Shown here: piece after piece, positions 11,670 to 63,175 of the stretch
How the letters are laid out: every line of letters begins with the position of its first letter
How positions within the stretch are numbered: the first letter of the stretch is position 1
Sequence record: NC_027356.1
Direction: 5' to 3' (one strand)
DNA length: 64,000 bases
Source: Escherichia phage DT57C
Translations under genes and position numbers: made by a program
The notes under the pieces: model-generated
Told to the model about the DNA's origin: nothing
Seen by the model: only the letters and a program-made list of their open reading frames with translations
Databases searched by the model: none

Positions 11670-11744
11670 AAATAACACTCCTATAGTGTACTTTGCTTCT
11701 AACAGAGGATCAACAAAAGATCTTGTTTATCAACTTACAAATAT

Positions 11745-11773
11745 ATTATACCAGTATATACAGTAAAAAGCAA
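11745..11773 (-). promoter_or_regulatory. sigma70-type promoter (TTGCTT, 17 bp, TATAAT) for phoH
   Basis: Minus strand ttgctt-17-tataat in the divergent intergenic region. Confidence 0.5.
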
Positions 11774-11910
11774 CTACAATTTTAAATAAGCCTATGATAT
11801 TGCATTTAAATAAAAAATTTGCTTGCTTATAAAGGTAAAAGTATGATACTAGATAATCATTTATTTATACGCGAAATATTACAGTATTAGATGGCGAAAG
11901 AAAAATTTAA

Positions 11911-11939
11911 TTGACATAGTGGGTAATATTTAGTATAAT
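11911..11939 (+). promoter_or_regulatory. sigma70 consensus promoter (TTGACA, 17 bp, TATAAT) for nrdD
   Basis: ttgaca at 11911-11916 and tataat at 11934-11939, exact consensus. Confidence 0.6.
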
Positions 11940-12073
11940 AAGTGTAAAAATTCTGAGGAGAAAACTAATCCACAGTAACTACTGTAAAGAGTAGAACTGT
12001 CAGTACAGAAGTTTTAACGGGGGTATAGAGGTCCTCGGTACTGTAGCTACAAAATTTATAGAGGAAATAATTA

Positions 12074-14767: not shown

Positions 14768-15196
14768 ATGTTTAATAATGTATTCTCTAAAGAAGCTAAC
14801 CCAATATTGGTTAATTTTTGGCGTACTCTTCCAGACAACCTGTACAATGAGGCTATTAATGCTCTGAAAATATGGTGTGAGAATAATGAAATCTCCTTTG
14901 CTTTTAAGGGTGAGATTGAAGAAGCTCCCTGTATTGGTTTAATTGTGCAGGTAGAGGATGATCTGGAAGAGATTGTCGGATGGAAAGAGTTGGATGAAAT
15001 GGGATTGGTTTTTGCATTAAACTATAAGCTGTTTATGCCTAATAAACACCGTATTGTTGTTAATTATAAAACCAGTGAATCTCCGGGCTTTCAAGTTAAT
15101 GAACATTACGGTTGGTCTTACTCACCGGAAGAAGTAAATGATGGTATCCAAAGACTTCGTCGTTTTGGTTATCAAATTCCGGGTTTAACCGCCTAA
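14768..15196 (+). CDS. hypothetical protein, paralog of 15206..15598
   Basis: AAGGTG RBS; shares PC-G...W-EL-MGL-ALN-LF-P motif with the next gene. Confidence 0.5.
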   Translation: MFNNVFSKEANPILVNFWRTLPDNLYNEAINALKIWCENNEISFAFKGEIEEAPCIGLIVQVEDDLEEIVGWKELDEMGLVFALNYKLFMPNKHRIVVNYKTSESPGFQVNEHYGWSYSPEEVNDGIQRLRRFGYQIPGLTA

Positions 15197-15205
15197 GGGG
15201 GCACA

Positions 15206-15598
15206 ATGGAACAAGTATATTGGCGTCAGATTGATCCTAGTTTGGTGAAGCGTGCGGAGAAGCTGCTACAACGTTGGTTGGGGGTAAGACAAGCCTCCTT
15301 CACTTTTCCGGAGCAGCAAATAGACGATCCCTGTGTTGGTGTTTTCCTATCAGGCTACGCTAGGGAAGTGGAATTGGATTGGAATGAATTGTCTGCTATG
15401 GGTTTAATTGTTGCACTAAATTTCTCTTTGTTCCATCCACGTGGCTTGGCCATAAGTCGTGTGCCTGATGACGGTTGTTCGCCCCATCTTTTACAGGTGG
15501 AAGATGATATTTGGGAGTACCCTCCAGATATTCTCAAAGAAGCTAAAGAACAATTAAATCGTGTTGGGATTTATGTTCTAGGCCTGAATGATGAATGA
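15206..15598 (+). CDS. hypothetical protein, paralog of 14768..15196
   Basis: GGGGG RBS; shared motif with upstream gene. Confidence 0.5.
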   Translation: MEQVYWRQIDPSLVKRAEKLLQRWLGVRQASFTFPEQQIDDPCVGVFLSGYAREVELDWNELSAMGLIVALNFSLFHPRGLAISRVPDDGCSPHLLQVEDDIWEYPPDILKEAKEQLNRVGIYVLGLNDE

Positions 15599-15621
15599 TT
15601 TTTATTAGCTGAACTCTAATT

Positions 15622-15649
15622 ACCGAGTCATTTTGGCTCGGTTTTCTCT
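15622..15649 (+). terminator. rho-independent terminator
   Basis: Hairpin accgag-tcattttgg-ctcggt followed by tttctct. Confidence 0.5.
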
Positions 15650-15689
15650 ATGTTCAAAGACACTGGTAGCAGCCCCTGGAAAAATTTAC

Positions 15690-15718
15690 TTGCTTGATGC
15701 TCAAAATCTTGATATAAT
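15690..15718 (+). promoter_or_regulatory. sigma70-type promoter (TTGCTT, 17 bp, TATAAT)
   Basis: ttgctt-17-tataat; followed by about 600 nt with no ORF. Confidence 0.55.
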
Positions 15719-16314
15719 ATTTATATTGAATTGAGAGACATTAGTAAAAATTGATTTTGCTAATTTTTCTTAGTGAAGCTGACAAGGGATTTACGGCGAG
15801 AGGAATCGATGACCCGTAAATAGCTGCATAAGGTACGTTGCTAGAGCTTTACGAAAAAGTTTTTTCTTGTTTACAATCCGCGATACGGAACAGTTAGGCT
15901 GCCCCATTAAGGGTTGTTTTAACTGTTACGTGTTAGTTTTTAAACAAATAGTTAATAGAATACTTAGCGATCTACACCCCGTAGGAACCCTGGTAAGGCC
16001 TCGAAGCAACCTAGTGTGAGGTGGTTGTGAAGTGAGACGGGAAGAGTGAAAAACTCTGAGAAGTGATGACGTAAGGTATACTGCATCTAGTATGAGCTAG
16101 TACATGAAGCATTAGGTGAGCAAATCTGGCTTAGCGGCCATCCTCAAGGATTTGTGCGGTATAGTGAAGCGGCAGTGTAGCGTGAAAGTGGAAGTTGCCA
16201 CCCCACTTCAGTATTTGCGATTAATTTGTTGAGAAATTGACAGTAACAGTTGTTCTATTCTTTCTGAATAGTCCTAAAGAAAACTTATTTCATTTCCAAC
16301 ACAGGAGTATTGTT

Positions 16315-19104
16315 GTGTTTTCAATCCTACAAGGTCATGCAGGATTTCATCGCGATTTAGCCACAGGCAATTGGCGAGAAGTTAAAGCAGAAGATTATCT
16401 TTTTGCTAAAAGATTTTCCTCAAAGCATCCTGAAGGTAAACCAGCTTCAATGCCCTTCAAGTTTGATGTAATTGATGAAGTTGATCCTCAAACCCTAGTA
16501 GAAATGCTCCCTCTTATGAGACGTTTAACGTCTGATCCTCATATCGTTGCGGTACGAGGTCGATGTCTTGCACCTAAAAATAATGTGCGGCGTAAGAAGG
16601 GCAACTTTAATGTATCTAATCCTAGTAGTATTATTGCTATGGACGTGGATGGTATTGTAGATACAGGTGGTTGTAACAAGTTTGATCTTGTTGGCATGGC
16701 TCGTCATATTATTAGGATGTTAAATAGTATTAGTGAGGATATGTTTCCTCTTGATGCAGGGTTTATTGCTCATGCATCGTCTTCGGCTGGGCTAAAACCA
16801 GGTATCCGAATGCACTTAATACTAGAATCTAATGTTAAAGTAACTCAGGGTCAAATCAAGTTCTTATTTACATCTATCAACGAAAGTAGTAGACAAAAGT
16901 ATGGCTTTGATATTGCCGACTTAGCTTATTACTCTTCCGTACAGCTCCATTACTTTGCAGATCCTTTATTTACCGATGGTATAGTTGATCCGTTTAAAGC
17001 GGAGGGTGCTTCACGTCTGGTATTTGTTAAAGGCTCAAAAGTAAATTTACCTAATAATCTAGTTGACTATGAAACAACTAGAGGGGAGTTTAAAGAGGAA
17101 TTCTATTCTTTACTCGACCAAATTAAAGGTAAAAAAGCTGCTTCTGATAAAGTAGAGGAAACTATCAGTGAGCTAGAAGAGGCTGATGATGGGGTATACT
17201 TACGTATTATTCCAAAGCTATATCACCGAGCGTTAGAGGATGGGGTAGATTTTGGTTGGCTAGAAAAAGAAATCCGCCCAGCTTTATCAGAATATATTGC
17301 AACTAAAGATAATAGCCGTAATATTCAAGACTACTTTAACAACGGTCGAAAACAGGCTCTGAAAGCATTTGTTAATAATTCTAAACGTGATATACCCGAT
17401 GTTTTAAAAGGTATTCCGCTTAAAAAGCTAGAAACTAATTCACTAGAGACCGACAACTTCTTGAAATTAAATACTGTACCACCAGAAGGCTATATGACTT
17501 TTGTAAAAGCAAGTCTAGGTACAGGTAAAACCACGGCTGTTGTGCGTTGGTTAGATTCAGGAGTTATTAAAGGTAATTTCTTAGCAATTACCAACACTAG
17601 AGCACTGGTATCTTCAAATGCTAAGAAATTTAGTGCAGGACAATACGATAAGTCTGTAGATATGCTTAATTTTAAGCGTGGTGCTATTGACCGTATGTCC
17701 ACAACCATTCACTCTTTGCATAAGTTTAAGAGTTTTATTGGTCAAATTGATGCAATCTTTATAGACGAATGTGATGCAGTAATGAATGACCTATTATTCG
17801 CCCCCGTTGTTAAACAACGTCGTGAGTGTATTCAGGTTCTTCGTGATATTCTTGCAACTGCAAAAATCATTATACTATCCGATGGTGACATTAGTTCTGA
17901 GACGATTGAAGCATATGGTTCTTTGATTGAGTTCGATAAACCAGTTGCATTCTATAATCACCACCGTAAAATGCTGTCAAAAGCTCATGCTTATGAGTTC
18001 CCTGATGAGTCCAGTATTTGGGTTGCACTTCAGACCTCTCTAGAGATGGGTGAGAAATCTATTCTAGTATCTGATTGTGGCCCAGATGAGCTGAATGAGA
18101 AGGGTATGGCACTACGTCGTAATACTGGTGCATTAGTTAAAGAAATCCATTCAAACTCCACTTCAGATGTGGATATTCGACGTATTCTGGATTATACAAC
18201 TAATGAGCTAATTGATCAACAAATTGATTGCTTATTATGTAGTCCATCCGTAACGAGTGGAGTTGACTTTAACTATTTTGATAACGTATTTGTTATTACT
18301 AGAACCAGTAATCAGGCGCCAAACATGCGTTTCCAAGCAATCAGGCGCGACCGTGGTGCTCAGAATATCTATTATTTTATTGATAAATCCACTAGTGGAT
18401 TCTCTGCAGGTTCTGAACAATATAATATTGATGAAGGTTGGCTGGAGTTAGCGCAGCAATTATATGCACGTCGCAGGGAGCTGGAATCTAGAAACTATAC
18501 TAGTACTTTACGTTATTACTTGCTTGATCAAGGTGCAACTATTGATATTTTCAGTGAAAGCTGGGGAACTATTGAAGGTGCTGGTAAAGAATACACAGAA
18601 GAGCGAATCAAAGCTATTCTGCACTCAACTCCTGATTATTGTGCTCCACGTCATGCGGATGCGTATGAGGCTAAACTACTTATTGTTCGCTATTATCATC
18701 TTGAGTCTATTAAAGATGTAACAGTTGAGCATGTTGAACAATATATCAAAGATAAGCCGAATGATCGAGCTGCATTCTTCCATAAGATGCACGAGATGTT
18801 CTGGGAAGATATTAAGAAGTGTTCAAATGTGACCATTAAACCATTCATAGAAGCTCTGAAAGGTAAGAAGAAAGATTTCTTCCTTAAAACGGGTCAGAGT
18901 GCTAACCCAAAATATGCTAGAATGTATCTTGGTATGATGGGTATTGGTAAAGATATGAACACGGAGAATATCGTAGACTGGTACAGAACCTATTGTAAAA
19001 TCGAGTGTATGCCAATTCCTTTCAAATTTATGACAGAGGAAGAGAAGGCTATGGCAGAAGAAGCAATGTCAGAGCTAGGTGCTAGAAATGACAGTGAAGA
19101 ATAA
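16315..19104 (+). CDS. large replication protein with Walker A/B NTPase domain (origin-binding / helicase-like)
   Basis: Walker A SLGTGKTT and Walker B IFIDECD mid-protein. GTG at 16315 with AGGAG RBS preferred over the track's TTG at 16237. Confidence 0.65.
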   Translation: MFSILQGHAGFHRDLATGNWREVKAEDYLFAKRFSSKHPEGKPASMPFKFDVIDEVDPQTLVEMLPLMRRLTSDPHIVAVRGRCLAPKNNVRRKKGNFNVSNPSSIIAMDVDGIVDTGGCNKFDLVGMARHIIRMLNSISEDMFPLDAGFIAHASSSAGLKPGIRMHLILESNVKVTQGQIKFLFTSINESSRQKYGFDIADLAYYSSVQLHYFADPLFTDGIVDPFKAEGASRLVFVKGSKVNLPNNLVDYETTRGEFKEEFYSLLDQIKGKKAASDKVEETISELEEADDGVYLRIIPKLYHRALEDGVDFGWLEKEIRPALSEYIATKDNSRNIQDYFNNGRKQALKAFVNNSKRDIPDVLKGIPLKKLETNSLETDNFLKLNTVPPEGYMTFVKASLGTGKTTAVVRWLDSGVIKGNFLAITNTRALVSSNAKKFSAGQYDKSVDMLNFKRGAIDRMSTTIHSLHKFKSFIGQIDAIFIDECDAVMNDLLFAPVVKQRRECIQVLRDILATAKIIILSDGDISSETIEAYGSLIEFDKPVAFYNHHRKMLSKAHAYEFPDESSIWVALQTSLEMGEKSILVSDCGPDELNEKGMALRRNTGALVKEIHSNSTSDVDIRRILDYTTNELIDQQIDCLLCSPSVTSGVDFNYFDNVFVITRTSNQAPNMRFQAIRRDRGAQNIYYFIDKSTSGFSAGSEQYNIDEGWLELAQQLYARRRELESRNYTSTLRYYLLDQGATIDIFSESWGTIEGAGKEYTEERIKAILHSTPDYCAPRHADAYEAKLLIVRYYHLESIKDVTVEHVEQYIKDKPNDRAAFFHKMHEMFWEDIKKCSNVTIKPFIEALKGKKKDFFLKTGQSANPKYARMYLGMMGIGKDMNTENIVDWYRTYCKIECMPIPFKFMTEEEKAMAEEAMSELGARNDSEE

Positions 19105-23746: not shown

Positions 23747-24506
23747 ACTGAACTGGAACGTAGAAGGTGTAACCGAGTCTCTGAAAGCAAAAGCCACTGC
23801 TCTGGGTGTTGCTGTAATCTCTCAAGAACAAGTAGCTGCTATCGCTGCTGAACTGGCTGCTGAAACTGGCAAAGACGTTACCGCTCGCTCTGTTGGCTCT
23901 AAGCTGCGTAAAGAAGGTTTCGAAGTACAGAAAGCTAACGAAGTACAGAAATCCCCGTGGACTCCTGAGCAGGAAGCTGAACTGGTTGATTTCCTGAACT
24001 CTCATGCTGGTCAGTATACTTATGCTGAAATCGCTGCTGCTGTAGCTGGTGGTCAGTTCGGTGCTAAACAGGTACAGGGTAAGATCCTGAGTCTGGAAAT
24101 GACCGCCTCTGTTAAACCAACTGAAAAAGCTGCTGCTGTTCGTTCCTTCACTCCGGATGAAGAAACTGATTTTGTTAATCAGGTTGTTGCTGGTGCTACT
24201 ATTGAAGCTATCGCTGCCCACTTCGGTCGCAATATTAAGCAGATCCGTGGTAAAGCTCTGAGTCTGCTTCGTGAAGGTCGTATCGCCGCTATGCCGGTAC
24301 AGGAAACTTCAAGTGCTAAAACTCGTGAAGATCTGCTAGAAGGTCTGGATCTGGCTAACATGACTGTTGCTGAGATCGCTGAGAAAACTGGTAAGTCTGA
24401 GCGCGGTGTTAAATCTATGCTGTCTCGTCGTGGTCTGGTTGCTAAGGACTATGATGGTGCCGCTAAGCGTGCTAAACTGGATGCAAAAGCTGCGGCTGCT
24501 GAATAA
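23739..24506 (+). CDS. hypothetical repeat protein (255 aa), host-optimised codons; possible abundant DNA-binding protein
   Basis: Four copies of a roughly 30-aa motif (IAA...G.....V.GK.LSL); strongly E. coli-preferred codons; GGAG RBS; strong terminator follows. Confidence 0.6.
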   Translation: MSKLNWNVEGVTESLKAKATALGVAVISQEQVAAIAAELAAETGKDVTARSVGSKLRKEGFEVQKANEVQKSPWTPEQEAELVDFLNSHAGQYTYAEIAAAVAGGQFGAKQVQGKILSLEMTASVKPTEKAAAVRSFTPDEETDFVNQVVAGATIEAIAAHFGRNIKQIRGKALSLLREGRIAAMPVQETSSAKTREDLLEGLDLANMTVAEIAEKTGKSERGVKSMLSRRGLVAKDYDGAAKRAKLDAKAAAAE

Positions 24507-58238: not shown

Positions 58239-59615
58239 TTAAGATGCAGCGTAAGCACCGGATACAACGCCGTTCTCGAAGTAACGTTGCAGGTTAACAC
58301 GCTGAGTAACGTAGTATGCGTCACGCTGTTTGCCAGCTTGGCGCTCACGTTCAACAGTAACAGCACGCTGACGTGGCATCACGAAGTTATCTTTATAAAC
58401 AATAACTGCGAACTCTTTACCAGCTGCTTTAGCTGGGAAGTACTCAGAAACTACAACCGGCAGACCATAAATACGACCAACCTGACCCTGCAGTTTAACA
58501 GCATCATTACCAACCTGAGCAACATCCTGCCATTCTTCATCTTCCAGCAGATCGTAGTAAGCATCCATAGATACAATCAGTACCAGTTTGGACAGTTTCA
58601 GACCATGACGGCCCAGCTTACGACGCAGTTTAGAGATAGTTTTAGCAGTTACCAGAACAGAACCATCAGCTTTAGCTTCGGTAGTAACTTTAGCACTATC
58701 TTCACTAGCAAGAGTCAGCAGACCTTTCGGCTTACCAGAACCATCACCAGTCATGAAGGCTTCTTCAATAGAAACAGCGTGTGCTTCAATTAGACGCTTA
58801 CGAAGCAGTGGCAGCAGGGAGAAGATTGCATCTTCTTCAGTTTCATCAGTAATGAAGGATTTAGCAGCCAGTTTGTAAGTACTGAAGTGGATTTCTGTAA
58901 GAGCGCCTGTAACTTCGCTACCAGTAGTATTGTCACTACCATAAGCAGAAGCAGCAACCCAAGTAGCTCTACCAGCATCCGGTTCAACCAACATAGTAAG
59001 AATCTTACTGGACATCGGCAGTTCTTCGAACAGTGCGCCAACTACTAGCTCTTTCTGCAGGTCACGGATAATACGCTGAGAGAAAATAGTTTCATAGCTT
59101 TCACTAGAAACTTCTACAGAAGAGGACTGATTCACTGCTTTCAGGTGTTTTTGACCGTGTTCGGTTTCGAATACGCCTTTTTCCATTACATAGGACAACA
59201 GAACCAGTTTTTCTACTTCGTCTTCAAAGGTTTCCTGAGTACCGTACAGTGCTTTAGCAACACTATCACCAACGAAGGAACGACCTTCACGAGCTGTTAG
59301 CAGAGACTTAATTTCGTCCTGAAGACCAACAATAGTTTCCTGTTGTTTTTCTACAGTTTGTGCAAACAGTTCTGCACTCTTCTTAGATTTCTCATCCAGA
59401 GACTTAACCAGTTCCAGAGCTTGTTCCAGTTTCTGACGATCTTCGCCAACTGCTTTAGAAACCAGGGCATTCATACGAGCCAGTTCTTTTTCTTCCTGCT
59501 CTTTACGCATACGTTCAGCTTCCTGAGCTTTCTGAGCAGCGGTCAGACCTTCCAGAGATTTAGCCAGATCACCCAGACCAAGTTCTTCTTTCAGCTTATT
59601 AATATCAATAGTCAT
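58239..59615 (-). CDS. major capsid protein (HK97-fold, pb8-like)
   Basis: 458 aa; coiled-coil scaffold-like N-terminal delta domain followed by capsid core. Confidence 0.8.
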   Translation of the reverse strand: MTIDINKLKEELGLGDLAKSLEGLTAAQKAQEAERMRKEQEEKELARMNALVSKAVGEDRQKLEQALELVKSLDEKSKKSAELFAQTVEKQQETIVGLQDEIKSLLTAREGRSFVGDSVAKALYGTQETFEDEVEKLVLLSYVMEKGVFETEHGQKHLKAVNQSSSVEVSSESYETIFSQRIIRDLQKELVVGALFEELPMSSKILTMLVEPDAGRATWVAASAYGSDNTTGSEVTGALTEIHFSTYKLAAKSFITDETEEDAIFSLLPLLRKRLIEAHAVSIEEAFMTGDGSGKPKGLLTLASEDSAKVTTEAKADGSVLVTAKTISKLRRKLGRHGLKLSKLVLIVSMDAYYDLLEDEEWQDVAQVGNDAVKLQGQVGRIYGLPVVVSEYFPAKAAGKEFAVIVYKDNFVMPRQRAVTVERERQAGKQRDAYYVTQRVNLQRYFENGVVSGAYAAS

Positions 59616-62657: not shown

Positions 62658-63114
62658 AATCCCCCAATCCAAAGCTACTTAGAAAGATTACTATATCCTC
62701 TAGGGCAACATTGAGATTCCATCTAATGTGGTATAGCATATATGACCCTTATTGTGTTATAGATGTAGTTTTTATTATTATAGTTATTTAATAGCACATA
62801 CTCTATTCTGGGTATTTTGGCTTTAATAGCTACATCTAGTGATATAGTGTAGAGGTGTAATGTGGTGTTGCTTCCCAAACGTGTGCTCTCTGGCATTTAA
62901 ATACTGTTTTTGTACGTTGGTTTACATATTCACCGACAATTTGGATTCCACGATCAGCTAATCTAATATTTATATCTTTTATTGTTAGCTTTTGTCGACC
63001 CGTAGAATCTCCTACACCTCATGTAGAGCATTAATTTTTTCTTGTTTACGTTCTATTATGGGAGAAGTTCTCCCGATCAATGAATATAGTATACATAATC
63101 GTATCGAATTTGTA

Positions 63115-63168
63115 AAGGGGATTTTAAAATACAGGAATGGGATACCAACTGAGTAGTATCCCATCCTA
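63115..63168 (-). terminator. rho-independent terminator after the terminase gene
   Basis: Hairpin ggatgggatac-tactcagttg-gtatcccattcc followed by UGUAUUUU on the minus strand. Confidence 0.55.
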
Positions 63169-63175
63169 TACTTAT

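Follow-up and report, generated by a model that had tools for sequence, protein, structure and literature searches.

What lies in front of the gene for the putative replication origin binding protein (OBP, a helicase) of Escherichia phage DT57C (NC_027356.1), a T5-like member of the genus Tequintavirus? In the 64,000-nucleotide stretch of this genome that was analyzed, hereafter the window, no open reading frame (ORF) of at least 60 amino acids occurs on either strand from 15599 to 16236. This run of 638 nt is the longest of its kind in the window, the runners-up measuring 503 and 395 nt, and it bears out the ORF-free region claimed by an earlier sequence-only reading, in which a model had seen only the letters and a list of ORFs. 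It is closed by a TTG (16237) which is merely the mechanical start of the downstream ORF; the real start is a GTG at 16315 preceded by a Shine-Dalgarno AGGAG at 16303–16307 (together 16303–16317, + strand), on which the sequence and the annotations of phages SP3 and T5 agree. The whole ORF-free stretch up to this start spans 15599–16314. Between 15600 and 16320 the DNA is 97.5% identical to that of Salmonella phage SP3, and about 540 GenBank phage records match it. On comparative grounds we consider it very probable that this stretch encodes a + strand RNA with an elaborate, conserved structure, predicted to be about 590 nt long here and about 490 nt in T5.

The evidence which carries this proposal is covariation. 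A covariance model (R1), built only from four near-identical sequences and the proposed structure, matched the + strand over its full length in six lineages, among them T5, each time at the syntenic position and with E-values from 1e-81 to 5e-3. The window type (type A) scored approximately 1e-81, the metagenomic lineage L095 6e-37, lineage L070 3e-25, Pectobacterium phage My1 2e-15 and the Klebsiella phages 6e-6; the weakest matches, 3e-4 to 5e-3, were those of the T5 type (type B, which includes L016-L030 and L036). The core domain (15969–16182, + strand), a unit of 214 nt with two multi-helix junctions, was then scored on the R1-fitted alignment, which contains 22 distinct sequences and 56 pairs, using as controls the same pairs with partners slid by 1–3 columns and 500 shuffles. 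Standard pairs filled 94.1% of the cells (34–41% when slid), and the covariation score was 0.453, as against 0.04–0.10 for slid partners and 0.164 for shuffled ones. The sequence-only reading had suggested that compensatory base changes be sought among T5-like genomes; changes on both sides were present at 45 of the 56 core pairs, with slid controls giving 11–17. None of the 500 shuffles reached any of the five measures. The core is 211–221 nt long in every lineage despite the divergence, and even in a plain alignment the hairpin stems differ between lineages while the loops are unchanged.

The long-range stalk (LR1) which encloses the core consists of a 5' arm at 15920–15967 and a 3' arm at 16206–16252 (both + strand), forming approximately 45 bp from sequences about 260 nt apart; 15921–29 and 16243–51 are 100% complementary. 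RNAduplex assigned it -34 kcal/mol, compared with -15.7 +/- 3.3 for shuffled arms, and z-scores of -3.9 to -6.9 were obtained in types A and B, My1 and L070, whose stalk sequences are unrelated. The stalk is weaker in L095 and in the Klebsiella type, where it is indistinguishable from shuffles (z = -1.3). One stalk position passes from G-C through G-U to A-U across close relatives. In the two 5' hairpins, H1 and H2, 10 of the 29 pairs are compensatory on the MAFFT alignment. Among the paired cells, G·U and U·G combinations number 124 and A·C and C·A combinations 25, an excess which favours an RNA of the + strand, and the orientation of the promoter described below agrees. Covarying helices, strand-specific G·U pairs and a conserved promoter together lend strong support to the structured non-coding RNA that the sequence-only reading had offered as one of its options.

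Some results tell against this interpretation. The alignment which yielded the largest covariation count is itself fitted to the structure, and for this reason the test was repeated blind to it: MAFFT alignment followed by de novo RNAalifold recovered core helices Pa, Pb and Ph, with compensatory changes in 18 of 25 pairs and a covariation score of 0.599, slid controls reaching at most 0.20. Folding energy was also unhelpful. The whole leader gave a z-score of -3.06 on the + strand and -2.78 on the - strand, and the core alone gave -0.39; since energy neither separated the strands nor marked the core, it was set aside as evidence. RNA folding had been another check proposed at the outset; for H1 it gave a z-score of -3.8.

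How is this RNA built? The architecture was derived from subfamily consensus folds, and its elements, all on the + strand, are given in window coordinates. The RNA opens with the 5'-terminal hairpin H1 (15731–15773; GAGAGAC-AUUAGUAAAA / UUUUGCUAAU-UUUUCUU), which, besides its folding score, shows compensatory changes on the MAFFT alignment. H1 resembles a weak terminator, and the record of phage Stitch annotates a terminator there. It was also compared with a transcription attenuator: UUUUUCUU follows it both here and in T5, only one G-C pair occurs in its stem, and relatives of the Klebsiella lineage lack the U run. Next comes an optional inserted module of 97 nt (15772–15868) with repeated UUUUUCUU at its flanks. 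It is absent from T5 and most relatives, and occurs once per genome in 49 of the approximately 540 related records. A multi-copy mobile origin for it was ruled out, the insert being single-copy, in the window as elsewhere, and always at one place. The conserved hairpin H2 (15873–15917), containing AUACGGAACAGUUnGGCUGCCCCAU, is supported by its identity between the two alleles described below and by compensatory changes in the Klebsiella lineage; in L095 a CGGU/GCCG change was read from the alignment.

Within the core, helix Pa (15972–77/16175–80) closes the domain and Pb (15978–82/16037–41) encloses hairpins Pc and Pd. Pe (16043–47/16053–57) is a separate hairpin, after which a conserved single-stranded junction, GAGAAGUGAUGA (16058–16069), kept in the A, Klebsiella, My1, L070 and L095 lineages, leads to Pf (16077–83/16157–63). 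The latter closes a three-way junction with hairpins Pg (16084–89/16113–18) and Ph (16120–30/16137–55), and Ph bears the apical loop CUUAGCGG (16130–16137), whose alignment columns are invariant. Downstream of the core, the hairpin AAGUGG-(AAGUUGCCACC)-CCACUU with its GUUGCCAC loop (16186–16208) has altered stems in relatives: AAGUGG/CCACUU becomes AAGGGG/CCCCUU in close ones, and other stems are found in My1, the Klebsiella lineage and T5. Folding predicts a further 3' hairpin, CUAUUC-UUUCU-GAAUAG (16255–16271), after the stalk and ahead of the ribosome-binding site; at its position the Klebsiella, L070 and L095 lineages have stems of other sequence, as read from the alignment. The aligned sequences place the stalk end about 55–70 nt before the OBP start codon in all alignable lineages. 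Just before that codon stands an AAC(U)AAC...AGGAG string (16290–16307), found at the same place in L031, L034, L037-L039, L070 and L095, and kept even in Vibrio phages, where the upstream RNA region is unalignable. The string GCTTAGCGGC has a second exact copy at 24459–24468 on the - strand; copies with at most one mismatch number 4, with 1.9 expected, which is not significant.

Two features by which the stretch had originally been noticed take on a different meaning in the light of this fold. Both inverted repeats quoted by the sequence-only reading exist in the sequence, and neither is a helix of the conserved fold. The first, atttacgg/ccgtaaat (15789–15796/15814–15821), is confined to the 97-nt insert. 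As for the second, aacagtta/taactgtt, it was ruled out as a conserved helix: taactgtt (15920–15927) pairs with 16245–16252, a partner which follows when taactgtt is mutated in relatives, while aacagtta (15889–96, part of H2) does not. GC enrichment had also been claimed, and holds for the core, which at 49.1% GC stands at the 96th percentile of 214-nt windows and has a GC skew of +0.37 (G 31%, C 18%). It does not hold for the transcribed stretch as a whole (40.2%, against 39.8% for the window), and the stalk arms contain only 24–31% GC.

Where would transcription begin and end? Upstream lies a DUF7415 gene (15206–15598; Pfam), the second of two paralogues directly upstream (14768–15598), which in relatives are located downstream of Sir2-like genes. 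The intrinsic terminator of this operon (15622–15649, + strand) consists of a 9-bp stem at 15622–15642 with 5 G-C pairs followed by a T run, and T5 carries an annotated terminator at the homologous site; here the sequence-only reading was correct. A T5-type early promoter follows (15690–15718, + strand), with TTGCTT (15690–15695), a 17-nt spacer, TG-n-TATAAT (15713–15718) and an A/T-rich stretch upstream; the transcription start is predicted near 15725. It had been described as a consensus promoter, which is justified by the TATAAT with its TG, by the annotated T5 promoter at the homologous place (58999–59073) and by conservation, and is overstated at the -35, where TTGCTT fits the consensus at just 3 of 6 positions; a generic scan did not list it for that reason. 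TTGC-N17-21-TATAAT is kept at the same place in enterobacterial lineages, including Pectobacterium and Klebsiella phages, and TTGACA-N17-TATAAT occupies it in the Proteus-phage lineage. In L011, L016, L018 and L029 an additional ORF of 178 amino acids, a candidate homing endonuclease gene, is located between the DUF7415 gene and the RNA promoter, approximately 530–660 nt before the OBP start; in L029 the promoter is duplicated.

Comparison of types A and B revealed that identity varies greatly along the element. H1 and H2 are 99% and 96% identical between the types, the two upstream genes and the OBP gene 85–87%, and the stalk plus core (15931–16242) only 44%, with boundaries at the base of the stalk. 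Inside each type, identity of stalk and core is 95–96%. Thus close relatives carry one of two diverged isostructural cassettes, each strongly constrained. Judging by the R1 matches, type B is further from the A cassette than L095, L070 and My1 are.

The gap itself is widespread. In T5 it measures 617 nt (58928–59544) and holds the annotated terminator and promoter, then about 470 nt without annotation. Between the last upstream gene and the OBP start lie 533–886 nt in the 32 IMG/VR loci with an OBP gene, 590 nt in Pectobacterium phage My1, approximately 840 nt in Vibrio phage Pontus, 1100 nt in Vibrio phage phi 3 and 1590 nt in Aeromonas phage TS3; Vibrio phage D308 has about 730 nt with only 29–55-aa annotated ORFs. 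A metagenome search with the OBP alignment added only 11 further loci. MAFFT alignments put the stems out of register, and hence no small model of the three-way junction or of Ph was built; the distant lineages were examined by a simple search for UUAGCG(G) loops closed by at least three pairs. Such hairpins were found on the + strand of the OBP-upstream gap in Providencia-like phages (L034, L035), Proteus phages (L072, L073) and Aeromonas phages (one clear and one weaker in L041, two in L087), with stems that differ in sequence, and just once in all the flanking sequence examined. In the Providencia-like, Proteus and Aeromonas lineages the CUUAGCGG loop is carried upstream of OBP on covarying stems. 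The Vibrio phage gaps have a conserved promoter and a predicted consensus fold, and this search found no UUAGCG(G)-loop hairpin in them. A degenerate H2 pattern was tried on bacterial genomes and discarded, its matches (at least 120) being about what chance would give in 596 Gb by our own estimate; none of the three extra viral hits or the five sampled bacterial-genome hits of this pattern contained a core match.

Does the RNA belong to a known family? An Rfam search had been among the checks suggested, and no known family matched. At the gathering threshold Rfam gave no matches in the whole window, and a permissive scan of 15000–17000 with Rfam 15 gave best E-values of 0.46 and 1.7 (17 and 15 bits, the gathering scores being 36 and 60). 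The former, a C/D-box near-match, was traced to UGAUGA/CUGA-like strings in the junction GAGAAGUGAUGA and is at chance level. Eight related loci, T5, Vibrio and Aeromonas included, yielded terminator-like noise only. The families covered include group I and II introns, RNase P, tmRNA, 6S, ROOL, GOLLD, OLE, HEARO, riboswitches and plasmid copy-control RNAs. The 503-nt stretch without a 60-aa ORF (62673–63175) has no Rfam match at the gathering score either. Among the existing annotations inspected, the stretch in front of OBP bears nothing, small "hypothetical proteins", a terminator (phage Stitch) or a repeat (phage oselot), and in none of them an RNA label; within the limited literature searched we found no paper describing an RNA or mapping an origin at this locus. 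Judged by these comparisons, it is a large, family-specific structured RNA with two exchangeable structural alleles, outside Rfam.

What might such an RNA do? From its place behind the T5-type early promoter we infer that it is the 5' part of the OBP transcript. In this phage, a scan of the sequence and folding revealed nothing like a promoter or terminator from the end of the fold to the OBP start, which strongly supports the long leader of the replication gene envisaged by the sequence-only reading. The RNA is placed directly upstream of OBP in every case, and this constant position, the uninterrupted path into the gene and the constant spacing between stalk end and start codon suggest a functional link to OBP. 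We tentatively favour a cis-acting module that would regulate and process the OBP message. The invariant CUUAGCGG loop or the junction would be bound by a protein, for which OBP and other early replication proteins are the most plausible candidates, OBP being the obvious one. RNase III naturally acts on long duplexes such as this nearly continuous one of approximately 45 bp, and the stalks which it processes, for example those of rRNA precursors, are likewise made of flanks that pair round a compact domain. The stalk is thus a likely RNase III target, and we propose that a cut within it may free the core and determine where the OBP mRNA begins, how stable it is and how well it is translated.

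The cis-acting leader also faces difficulties. Some 450 nt of ornate structure far exceeds the needs of known translational operators. Proteus phages L072 and L073 (2435–2464) contain a perfect TTGACA-N18-TATAAT between the structured region and the OBP start codon, and such a sigma-70 promoter after the RNA means that OBP expression can be uncoupled from the leader. Finally, in a metagenomic lineage whose OBP is 43–44% identical, the region upstream is just 140–460 nt long and AT-rich (25–32% GC), and this lineage is accordingly considered to be without the element at that place.

Several of these observations would suit a free-standing, trans-acting non-coding RNA, a possibility which we regard as doubtful. 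The core would be cut out, for example by RNase III in the stalk, and do its work elsewhere: it could be a scaffold or decoy for a host or phage protein, serve anti-defence or the takeover of the host, or assemble with itself as the large RNAs ROOL and GOLLD do. It would then stand before OBP only because an early transcription unit was conveniently there. RNAs that have tertiary structure or protein partners typically show such a size, a multi-junction build, a constant core length and unchanging loops, and the long stalk round a compact domain, the separate OBP promoter of the Proteus lineage and the exchangeability of the stalk-core cassette also fit. However, there is no terminator or defined 3' end before OBP, and synteny with OBP is strict in distant lineages whose other neighbours differ. 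Nor does the window hold a further copy of the core or a tRNA neighbourhood, and no known trans-acting family was matched.

Could the locus instead be an origin? In this proposal it would be the primary replication origin and the structured transcript would take part in initiation, either by a persistent RNA-DNA hybrid which yields a primer, as with ColE1 RNA II, or by recruiting the helicase through the CUUAGCGG hairpin; we think this unlikely. The locus adjoins a gene annotated as an origin-binding helicase, a strong promoter reads into it, T5 has its own RNase H gene, and the two diverged stalk-core alleles recall replicon specificity cassettes. RNA richer in G than in C favours R-loops, and the core has such a composition; then again, an excess of G is normal for any structured RNA. 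The T5 gap, at 58.9–59.5 kb of 121.75 kb, lies at about 48.6% of the genome, close to the centre of the molecule near which T5 origins have been mapped (Davison, bioRxiv 10.1101/866236).

Sequence features, in turn, gave no clear support to the origin which the sequence-only reading had listed among its options. There are no iterons, the direct repeats being just three two-copy ones of 8–10 nt, and in the region there is no DnaA box at up to one mismatch; no - strand promoter-like site occurs within 15725–16314. The stalk arms are AT-rich, as an unwinding element would be, and are at the same time covarying paired RNA arms; the cumulative GC-skew minimum is elsewhere, about 4 kb upstream near 12 kb, where the direction of transcription switches. 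That minimum coincides with the 395-nt ORF-free stretch at 11679–12073; for phage phiLLS a published GC-skew prediction puts the origin about 3 kb past the homologous gap, in the direction leading away from OBP. The ornate conserved fold is not needed by known phage R-loop origins, and, as noted above, one OBP lineage exists without the RNA at that place. It is the pairing and not the duplex sequence that is conserved. An RNA-dependent origin, in which the transcript rather than duplex DNA repeats would define where and how T5-type phages start replication, is improbable in our estimate. Here the RNA would be a dedicated partner of the adjacent, putatively primase-like helicase, with the CUUAGCGG hairpin, the G-rich core and the stalk as loading platform, primer or template. 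If so, the two diverged alleles would be replication-specificity cassettes.

The OBP gene (16315–19104, + strand, 929 codons) is annotated as "replication origin binding protein" in relatives, and residues 390–530 or so of its product match the herpesvirus origin-binding helicase family (Pfam Herpes_ori_bp, residues 394–533; also PDB). The N-terminal 380 amino acids (16315–17454) have no Pfam or PDB sequence match; three features of this domain persist across the family, namely an invariant D-x-D, an S-S-S-x-G...H motif and, further along, a D. A single-sequence AlphaFold model of it reached a pLDDT of only 34. Some records label the gene a primase, and the N-terminal domain may be primase-like.

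The stretch might also work only as duplex DNA (an origin or an array of binding sites), be what is left of a dead gene or of a mobile element, or encode small proteins; we consider these explanations very improbable: two or three small hypothetical proteins annotated here in some GenBank records, the short ORFs of D308 and the homing-endonuclease-like ORFs inserted beside the promoter in some relatives are outweighed by pairing that is kept through compensatory changes while the sequence drifts to 44% identity, by the G·U asymmetry, by H1 and H2 being more conserved than the neighbouring genes, by the lack of repeats and, for the coding alternative, which was rejected, by 8–25 stop codons in each + strand frame, where the longest stop-free runs (40–79 codons) are placed differently per lineage and no ORF is common to the lineages across the RNA region.

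Work on T5 as a model phage goes back to the 1940s, and few coliphages and Salmonella phages are isolated more often than its relatives. That an RNA should sit exactly where the replication helicase gene of this classic model begins makes the locus more interesting than first stated. With about 0.5 kb and about a dozen covarying helices, it is comparable in size and complexity to RNase P, group I introns, ROOL and GOLLD; an RNA class this large is seldom discovered, and past cases have mostly led to new biochemistry. That it always stands before the helicase gene bears on how and where T5 replication starts and on how the helicase level is set, and isostructural alleles of 44% identity in genomes of 85–87% identity amount to a natural swap experiment. 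Genome annotators should stop calling small ORFs in this stretch.

How does the T5-type RNA compare with known systems? ColE1 RNA II is likewise a multi-stem transcript of approximately 0.5 kb, made from a constitutive sigma-70 promoter in a replicon control region; its folding decides a replication-related outcome, and its diverged alleles keep their structure, as here. The T5-type RNA differs in having no antisense RNA I promoter inside 15725–16314 and no homology to RNA II by Rfam, and in standing, as we read it, as a 5' leader before the helicase gene of a lytic phage. With ROOL, GOLLD and OLE it shares a length over 400 nt, many covarying helices and junctions, conserved loops and association with phages. 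Unlike them it matches no Rfam model, has no tRNA in the window, holds a fixed leader position before one gene and is confined, as far as seen, to the Demerecviridae.

Structured 5' leaders before replication protein genes are also known from plasmid R1 repA, IncI repZ and the T4 gene 32 and gene 43 operators, where autogenous protein binding is the usual logic. Those elements measure from tens of nt up to about 300 nt and contain a pseudoknot or one or two helices; in the T5-type RNA there are about 12 helices, the stalk measures 45 bp and the core is fixed at 214 nt, and no antisense partner was found. In RNase III stalks, such as those of rRNA precursors and the T7 early mRNA sites, flanks pair over at least 20 bp round a compact RNA, in the T7 case within a phage early transcript; here the enclosed domain is neither rRNA nor any known RNA, and cleavage is our proposal. 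Phage phi29 pRNA, too, is a phage early RNA with a three-way junction, and it works with a phage ATPase. The 174-nt pRNA does not, however, lead into a gene and works with the packaging motor, and the loop-loop complementarity of pRNA has no counterpart that we found in the T5-type RNA, whose neighbour is a replication helicase.

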